Assembly: GCF_054482525.1 (NCBI RefSeq)
Contig: NZ_CM137006.1
DNA: 64,000 bases
Direction: 5' to 3' (one strand)
The first letter of the stretch is position 1. Every line of letters starts with the position of its first letter. The notes beneath the pieces are model-generated. The model had not been told where the DNA came from and ran no database searches. It saw only the letters and a list, made by a program, of their open reading frames with translations. This document shows positions 13,384 through 13,930 of the stretch, in pieces. Position numbers and translations under genes: made by a program.

Positions 13384-13930
13384 ATCCCTCCTGTCGCGAA
13401 AAATGGCCTGCGTTATTGCCAGACGTAATAAAACTTTTGATTAACGTTACTCGTACTGGTAGCACCTTCATGTACTTTTCTTTTTTACGAAAAATCAAAA
13501 GAGCTAACAAAGGTCATAATTCGCATGAATCATTAATTATTTGTTATTTTCAACATTATTTTTACATTAAGCAGAGATGAATTGCAGTGAAATTCGACTT
13601 AACTTTTATGAAATGCATTTACTCATAGCTAAAGCCACGTCACAAAAATGCAAATTAGAAGTTGATCACAATTATCTCAATACATCAAATCAAGTTAATT
13701 TTAAAAATTTAACATTCATGACATTAGTTGACATAACACACTGAATTAAAATGAGAATTTGAAAACACACTTTAAACAATCATTTCCCGAAAGACATTTT
13801 GAAAATAGATCAATTGCAACATTACGGTCAGATAAAGACACTCCTGTGATATTAAACCTGTGCCGTTATGAGCGGCCATAAATACGACGTGTGTAACTTA
13901 TTTTACTCTCTGTCTTACAAAGGATTACCC

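Follow-up and report, generated by a model that had tools for sequence, protein, structure and literature searches.

Among LysR-type activators, BenM and CatM recognize ATAC-N7-GTAT dyads at about −64 and −43 of benA, MetR recognizes boxes of the form TGAA-N5-TTCA, and GcvA, the glycine cleavage activator of gcvTHP, uses several sites spread far upstream. Class II promoters of the anaerobic regulator FNR carry TTGAT-N4-ATCAA at −41.5. The subject of this analysis is the 547-bp AT-rich gap (13384 to 13930) preceding glmS, the first gene of a B12-dependent glutamate mutase cluster, in a 64,000-nucleotide stretch of contig NZ_CM137006.1 (RefSeq assembly GCF_054482525.1). This whole stretch, called the window below, is 100% identical to the chromosome of Escherichia coli PCN033. 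Comparison with related loci points to a promoter and a protein-binding site in the last ~150 bp of the gap, which probably form the on-switch of the cluster. With moderate confidence, we favor a reading in which the gap is an upstream control region made of a weak promoter and a LysR operator, the latter bound by the cluster's own GcvA-like regulator to activate transcription. As judged from its sequence, the element would be a previously undescribed instance of a familiar type, with a conventional mechanism.

The enterobacterial gene cluster for glutamate fermentation (methylaspartate pathway) was described, and its FumD enzyme characterized, by Kronen and Berg (2015; PMC4682846), who drew a putative LysR regulator in their Fig. 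5. They reported the cluster in ~90% of O157:H7 strains and in many Citrobacter, Klebsiella, Salmonella, Yersinia, and Morganella, and none of the conditions that they tried, among them anoxia, glutamate, and three cobalamins, gave expression in O157:H7. A link of the cluster to pathogenicity has been proposed. The cluster analyzed here is the same one, and the available passages of that paper give no promoter, operator, or regulatory sequence, which is what the present analysis adds. A literature search on the cluster's promoter, regulation, H-NS, transcriptomics, start sites, and Sakai locus tags returned nothing beyond Kronen and Berg. The gap is present, in one copy and without annotation, in 1135 of 5426 complete E. 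coli genomes, meaning that about a fifth carry the island with this B12-dependent glutamate degradation cluster, and a predicted promoter, a ~20-bp operator, and a candidate regulator make its switching-on experimentally testable.

The comparison set consisted of 80 loci from a GlmS scan, with one genome per species. A 21-mer located 110 to 138 bp 5′ of the glmS start codon, TTTTGAAAATAGATCAATTGC, was found with 0 or 1 mismatch in 42 Enterobacteriaceae loci, from Escherichia, Citrobacter, Klebsiella, Salmonella, Enterobacter, Lelliottia, Pluralibacter, Buttiauxella, and Pseudescherichia, and in these loci its flanks were essentially unalignable. In one Citrobacter locus the distance was 244 bp; this locus (L018, Citrobacter amalonaticus S646) has a ~110-bp insertion between promoter and ribosome-binding site (RBS), at about 5790 to 5990, and a longer predicted leader. 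Within the 21-mer is the dyad TTGA-N7-TCAA (13799 to 13813), centered on 13806 at about −43 from the predicted start, and the 21-mer itself runs into the predicted −35 hexamer. The locus thus has a T-N11-A dyad in the interval between about −80 and −30 that is characteristic of LysR promoters. Most genera keep the dyad as (T/C)TGA-N7-TCA, with C as the first base in Klebsiella, Buttiauxella, and Yersinia. Degenerate forms of the 21-mer occur in Yersinia and Budvicia (CTGAcAATAtATCAATTG), Hafnia (CTGACGAGATATCAATTG), Morganella (CTTACTTTATATCAATTG), and Yokenella (TTCAAATTTTATCAATTG), all of which share the core ATCAATTG.

This candidate operator also appeared to be specific to the cluster. The 21-mer is single copy in the window. 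A surrounding 35-mer has one copy in each of the 1135 island-bearing E. coli genomes, with identity of 99% or more in 1132 of them; at the sensitivity of that search, no copy was detected outside island-bearing genomes among the 5426. Five Yersinia species have fumD-cobO as an operon of its own, and there a related site, GTTGCAGAnAGAACAATTGCTTTT, followed after 16 to 17 nt by AATAAT, abuts that operon's own −35 and −10. Contig L091, in which fumD is likewise a separate operon, has a Morganella-like site and then CATAAT. No operator copy was found before the regulator gene or in the internal gaps at E. coli gltP and fumD. All copies of the motif that were detected are at promoters of this cluster (one in each E. 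coli island genome, and at fumD in split clusters), which points to a cluster-specific factor. When the IHF, Fur, Cra, and MetR consensus sequences were compared with the 21-mer by eye, none fit across species, and MetR boxes shared geometry alone with the motif. A GATC Dam methylation site (13808 to 13811) lies within the operator in all Enterobacteriaceae and is replaced by AATC or TATC in Yersinia, Hafnia, and Morganella.

Anchoring 53 unique loci on ATCAATTG revealed a pair of hexamers at fixed spacing next to the operator. TTGnnn was present in all 53 loci, with TTG invariant, and exactly 17 nt past it was nAnAnT, in which A at the second position was conserved in 53 of 53 loci, A at the fourth in 51, and T at the sixth in 52. 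The second hexamer is GACACT in E. coli, GAAACT in Citrobacter, CACATT in Yersinia and Morganella, CATATT in Yokenella, and CACACT elsewhere. Spacing within the 16- to 18-bp range and the conserved A2 and T6 agree with sigma-70 recognition, and the E. coli hexamers match the consensus weakly, at 7 of 12 positions. The pair is predicted to be a sigma-70-type promoter with a weak −10, and GACACT is weak in a way that suggests a need for an activator. Counting from the −10, transcription is predicted to begin at about A13849, and the Shine-Dalgarno sequence AAGGA is at 13920 to 13924. An alternative −10 at TATTAA (13850 to 13855) was rejected because it had no conserved −35 partner, lacked T6, and was lost in the Pseudescherichia group. 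A sigma-54 promoter, considered because of TTGC(A/T), was rejected by eye, as GG was missing at −24 and the spacing was 3 nt too long.

Two weaker elements were found farther upstream. An imperfect dyad (13779 to 13795) has partly conserved columns (T-tract ... AAGA) in the 53 loci and is centered at about −62, two helical turns upstream of the operator. Its spacing is N11 and not N9; Citrobacter and Enterobacter have a clean ATC-N11-GAT, and the E. coli version is degenerate. This dyad is a candidate second binding site for the LysR regulator. A more distal element, which in other genera reads (T/C)TGAT(T/A)T, keeps its TGAT at a fixed distance from the operator (at the equivalent position in L010 to L062), ~60 bp 5′ of it in Enterobacteriaceae and ~81 bp in Yersinia and Morganella, or ~21 bp (two helical turns) more.

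The sole regulator gene that travels with the cluster encodes the LysR-type protein listed in Table 1. Its closest NCBIfam model was GcvA, with 221.6 bits; because this is below the cutoff of 288, the regulator is not GcvA. Its closest entry in the Protein Data Bank (PDB) was also GcvA (8y6u, E = 7e-43). In Enterobacterales, orthologs 57 to 85% identical were found in cluster-carrying taxa, and the gene is intact in O157:H7. An ortholog or homolog was in or beside the cluster in six arrangements, which is every one examined. E. coli, Salmonella, and the metagenome contig L092 have the order sucD, regulator, cobO/fumD ... glmS. In Yersinia the regulator is divergent from sumT-pduX-glmS and is itself followed by fumD-cobO, and in Yokenella it is divergent from B12-uptake-like genes and glmS. 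Contig L091 has it after a cob operon, facing cobO-fumD-gltP, and in the Betaproteobacteria Rhodoferax and Aromatoleum, homologs 42 to 45% identical are directly divergent from glmS. From this linkage and the related sites at fumD, the protein that binds the operator is likely to be the cluster's own GcvA-like LysR regulator, which would then control a regulon specific to the cluster.

Conservation also defined how much of the gap is under constraint. The gap runs from the end of the open reading frame (ORF) orf140 at 13383 to the glmS ATG at 13931, and its GC content is 0.320, compared to 0.513 for the window; 1.5% of 547-bp segments are equally AT rich. The original prediction was therefore right in describing an AT-rich gap of ~550 bp. 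Low GC content is not specific to the gap, as the whole ~2.8-kb stretch from 11134 to 13930 has 32 to 38% GC and the 550 bp 5′ of glmS has 24 to 39% GC in all Enterobacterales loci examined. When the gap was compared to the 80 loci by BLAST, the proximal ~290 bp aligned in Escherichia only, and other genera shared with it only a short core around 13775 to 13855. In Citrobacter youngae and Klebsiella grimontii, cydA is directly 5′ of glmS across a gap of ~1.2 kb, and in Escherichia whittamii, matches to the window stop at 11776 and resume at 13525/13640, with none between. The absence of 11777 to 13524 from E. whittamii, together with cydA-glmS adjacency elsewhere, identifies orf314, orf140, and the first ~140 bp of the gap as an Escherichia-specific insertion.

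Rates of change within the gap agreed with this division. Among E. coli lineages, identity over 13384 to 13640 was 82 to 95%, the range of third codon positions in neighboring genes, so that the distal ~250 to 350 bp evolve at about the third-codon-position rate. Over 13641 to 13774, identity to E. whittamii and Escherichia sp. E1V33 was about 67 to 68%, and other genera had no match. E. coli lineages were 98.7 to 100% identical over 13775 to 13849 and 97.5 to 98.8% identical over 13850 to 13930. These comparisons support 13741 to 13849 as the constrained part, which would function as a DNA element comprising operator and promoter. Only the last ~110 to 150 bp of the gap look functional, and the rest appears to be mostly evolutionary filler from the insertion.

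In the mechanism that we propose, the GcvA-like LysR regulator would bind the dyads near −43 and −62 and the TGAT element near −101, and a co-inducer, probably a pathway metabolite, would let it recruit RNA polymerase to the poor promoter. Without activation by the regulator the operon would be off, possibly aided by H-NS on the surrounding AT-rich DNA. The failure to find expression conditions for O157:H7 (PMC4682846) fits such dependence on a specific activator. As at BenM/CatM-type promoters, there are 4-base half-sites 7 nt apart (T-N11-A), a dyad beside the −35 near −43, a candidate second and weaker dyad about two helical turns upstream, a weak core promoter, and a regulator encoded with its targets. 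Unlike at those promoters, the glmS operator sequence is new, the best-conserved dyad is promoter proximal, and the E. coli regulator gene, instead of being divergent, is at the opposite end of the cluster, 11 kb away, with no autoregulatory copy seen. GcvA is the closest characterized relative of the cluster regulator, and its far-upstream sites may have a parallel in the distal TGAT element, whereas target genes and motif differ.

Several observations weigh against this LysR-operator reading. The hexamers are poor (4 of 6 for the −35 and 3 of 6 for the −10), and a consensus promoter scan does not call them. Textbook LysR promoters have their best-conserved dyad near −65; here it is near −43. 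The motif was not found before the regulator gene, which leaves no visible autoregulatory site, and Morganella, Yokenella, and Yersinia enterocolitica have a degenerate left half-site. Invariance over 21 bp exceeds what is usual for a single transcription factor site, which suggests that another constraint or protein may be involved. The distal TGAT element resembles an FNR half-site in some genera. Finally, glutamate, anoxia, and cobalamins did not induce the O157:H7 cluster (PMC4682846), where the regulator gene is intact.

Four other explanations were weighed against the same data. The original prediction was of a long untranslated leader, and the corresponding proposal, that most of the 547 bp is a 5′ leader controlled at the RNA level by a riboswitch, an attenuator, or a small-RNA target, is very improbable. 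The enzyme is B12 dependent, B12-related operons often carry riboswitches, and like operons with the cobalamin riboswitch (RF00174), this one encodes a corrinoid adenosyltransferase besides a B12-dependent enzyme. No terminator was predicted between orf140 and glmS, so read-through is possible, and in many species the predicted transcript could form a small, variable hairpin at +9 to +30; such hairpins differ between species and are absent in some. Unlike in RF00174 operons, no riboswitch was detectable: the Rfam scan that had been proposed as a check, run at gathering scores across the window, found neither RF00174 nor any other riboswitch, in line with the original prediction, and cmscan of 11000 to 14500 at E ≤ 10 returned no Rfam family, only chance microRNA and snoRNA matches with E > 1. 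The fold of the predicted leader (13849 to 13950) was not significant compared to shuffled sequences (z = −0.68) and had no covarying pairs, a consensus fold from 18 species had 3 pairs at −0.77 kcal/mol with zero compensatory changes, and the first 45 nt of the predicted transcript in 52 loci had a mean z of −0.63. The distal gap drifts at the third-codon-position rate and part of it is the Escherichia-only insertion, and the conserved block is spaced like a promoter, not like an RNA helix. The conserved −35 and −10 (13814 to 13842) instead predict a leader of ~82 nt that lacks conserved structure, so that a long RNA leader is improbable. With most of this large AT-rich gap apparently filler from the insertion, the riboswitch and long-leader ideas are not supported. 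The original prediction's suggestion of an uncharacterized regulatory element in the gap is supported, and the element appears to be a DNA operator adjoining a promoter and not RNA. Control by a CRP/FNR-family global anaerobic regulator, binding the dyad or the distal TTGAT element to give an FNR-activated promoter, would suit an anaerobic pathway with an oxygen-sensitive FumD (PMC4682846), and we rate it as quite unlikely. The TTGA...TCAA half-sites, centered near −43 and hence close to −42, resemble a class II FNR site, and the distal element has 1 to 2 FNR mismatches in several genera (2 or fewer in 35% of loci, compared to ~12% of shuffles). Unlike in class II sites, the half-sites are 7 nt apart in every species, 1 bp more than the 6 nt of FNR and CRP sites, the left half begins with C in Klebsiella, Buttiauxella, and Yersinia, and the consensus is not matched; N7 rather than N6 spacing and a first-base C in many genera indicate that the conserved dyad is not an FNR box. 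Neither at −41.5 nor at a class I position was TTGAT-N4-ATCAA found, no site in the gap had 1 or fewer mismatches, as the original prediction had noted in finding no perfect FNR box, and FNR or CRP boxes were no more frequent than by chance. The FNR-like half-site string singled out there, TTGATCACAATTATC, is present at 13662 to 13676 with 2 mismatches, ~187 bp 5′ of the predicted start; as dinucleotide shuffles of the gap averaged 0.95 such sites (P = 0.61), this string, which lies where the gap is poorly conserved, is a chance match. Within the interval scanned upstream of the operator, the best E. coli match had 4 mismatches, and the distal element had 5 by manual count, and the cluster was not induced by anoxia (PMC4682846). 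Oxygen control by FNR through the distal element may be possible in other genera and is not supported for the E. coli sequence.

Xenogeneic silencing by H-NS, with the conserved block as a nucleation or anti-silencing site, would account for the lack of expression; it is compatible with the LysR-operator reading and is the least doubtful of the four, although we still hold it to be only possible. The gap is within the lowest 1.5% of segments by GC content, as expected of H-NS-silenced DNA (32% GC against a 51% background), and lies beside ~2.8 kb of 32 to 38% GC that includes two orphan ORFs; upstream regions are AT rich in all Enterobacterales loci, and laboratory expression was undetectable (PMC4682846). 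Recognition of composition or curvature, however, leaves near-invariance over 21 bp and a fixed spacing to the hexamers unexplained, and the literature search found no H-NS data for this locus. Less plausible, though somewhat ahead of FNR, is that the motif is bound by another protein, such as IHF or an unidentified regulator, with the LysR protein acting elsewhere or on other genes. The IHF consensus, WATCAANNNNTTR, has ATCAA as its core, invariance extends beyond the need of one dimer site, and the regulator's own promoter lacks the motif. The IHF consensus is nevertheless not matched, as ATCAA follows a G in Enterobacteriaceae and conservation does not extend to the TTR part, and the motif was detected only at promoters of the cluster, whose one accompanying regulator gene is the LysR gene. 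Quite improbable, in our estimate, is a more elaborate version in which the Dam-site operator and H-NS-prone DNA would form a tight or bistable switch, off in culture and turned on by the GcvA-like regulator in response to a gut or host signal. If this were true, a mobile B12-dependent pathway from glutamate to mesaconate and citramalate would be a conditionally expressed colonization trait governed by a defined, mutable DNA switch.

Table 1. Features in and around the glmS upstream gap (positions in the window)
Feature	Position	Strand	Remarks
orf314	11936-12880		Orphan ORF, island
orf140	12961-13383		Orphan ORF, island; ends directly 5′ of gap
Distal gap, tail of Escherichia-specific AT-rich insertion (about 11777-13524)	13384-13524		No sign of constraint
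Older AT-rich DNA	13525-13740		Weakly conserved, within Escherichia only; holds FNR-like string at 13662-13676
Distal conserved element, CTGAATTAAAATGA in E. coli	13741-13754	+	Center near −101.5
Imperfect dyad ATCATTTCCCGAAAGAC	13779-13795	+	Candidate second regulator site
Near-invariant 21-mer	13797-13817	+	Candidate operator
Predicted −35, TTGCAA	13814-13819	+	
Predicted −10, GACACT	13837-13842	+	
Predicted start and ~82-nt 5′ untranslated region	13849-13930	+	Start predicted from −10 position
glmS (methylaspartate/glutamate mutase subunit S)	13931-14380	+	RefSeq annotation of identical PCN033 sequence
LysR-type regulator, GcvA/DsdC-like, 301 amino acids	24719-25624	−	Pfam HTH_1 and LysR_substrate

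The island is located between cydA (9562 to 11133, minus strand) and sucD, at a site occupied in K-12 by mngR-mngA-mngB instead. Its operon has the order glmS-glmL-glmE-mal-atuA-DUF4387-gltP-fumD-cobO, in which glmS-glmL-glmE encode glutamate mutase and its reactivase, mal encodes methylaspartate ammonia-lyase, atuA encodes an AtuA-family protein, gltP encodes a glutamate/dicarboxylate symporter, fumD encodes the class I fumarase FumD (mesaconase), and cobO encodes a corrinoid adenosyltransferase. Outside Enterobacteriaceae sensu stricto (L045, L046, L087, L088, and L091) the cluster adjoins cobalamin biosynthesis genes (sumT, a pduX-like kinase, cobD-like, and a cbi/cob operon) or, in Yokenella, B12-uptake-like genes. 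These cobalamin genes are directly 5′ of glmS in the same orientation, and the operator and promoter are still immediately before glmS. One of the 1135 E. coli copies of the gap and operator sits on a plasmid-typed record, not on a chromosome.

DNA of orf314 and orf140 (~1.75 kb) is present in E. coli and absent from E. whittamii, Citrobacter, and Klebsiella, and Escherichia sp. MOD1-EC7003 has most of orf140 deleted. Neither ORF had a match in Pfam, NCBIfam, PADLOC, or PHROGs, and orf314 also had none in the PDB. Third codon positions of both diverge faster than the whole ORFs, which suggests that they are real genes. Small ORFs within or overlapping the gap (13416 to 13580, 13577 to 13744, 13759 to 13881, and 13334 to 13510 on the minus strand) were rejected as genes, as they have stops or frameshifts in other E. 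coli lineages. In the annotation of PCN033 (NZ_CP006632.1, L001), the locus tags go from RS03770 for orf140 to RS03760 for glmS and omit PPECC33_RS03765, so an earlier feature in the gap may have been withdrawn.

The RBS region of glmS (13916 to 13928) is strongly conserved, as UACAAAGGAUUAC here and UACAGAGGAUUAC in most other genera. It resembles the CsrA consensus, RUACARGGAUGU, with a single base added, and GGA is missing from the Yersinia-type version, CUACAUAGAGGGCUUAAC. In this strain an IS200C copy (24082 to 24673) with an STnc490 RNA element (24550 to 24673) lies between cobO and the LysR gene, at their 3′ ends. It is absent from O157:H7 strain F6667, and neither cobO nor the LysR gene is interrupted. 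The 160-bp gap between DUF4387 and the symporter gene contains a perfect hairpin with a 12-bp stem, GTAGATGCCTGAATCTTTATTCGGGCATCTAC (20245 to 20276), which could be an internal terminator or a processing site dividing the cluster into two transcription units.

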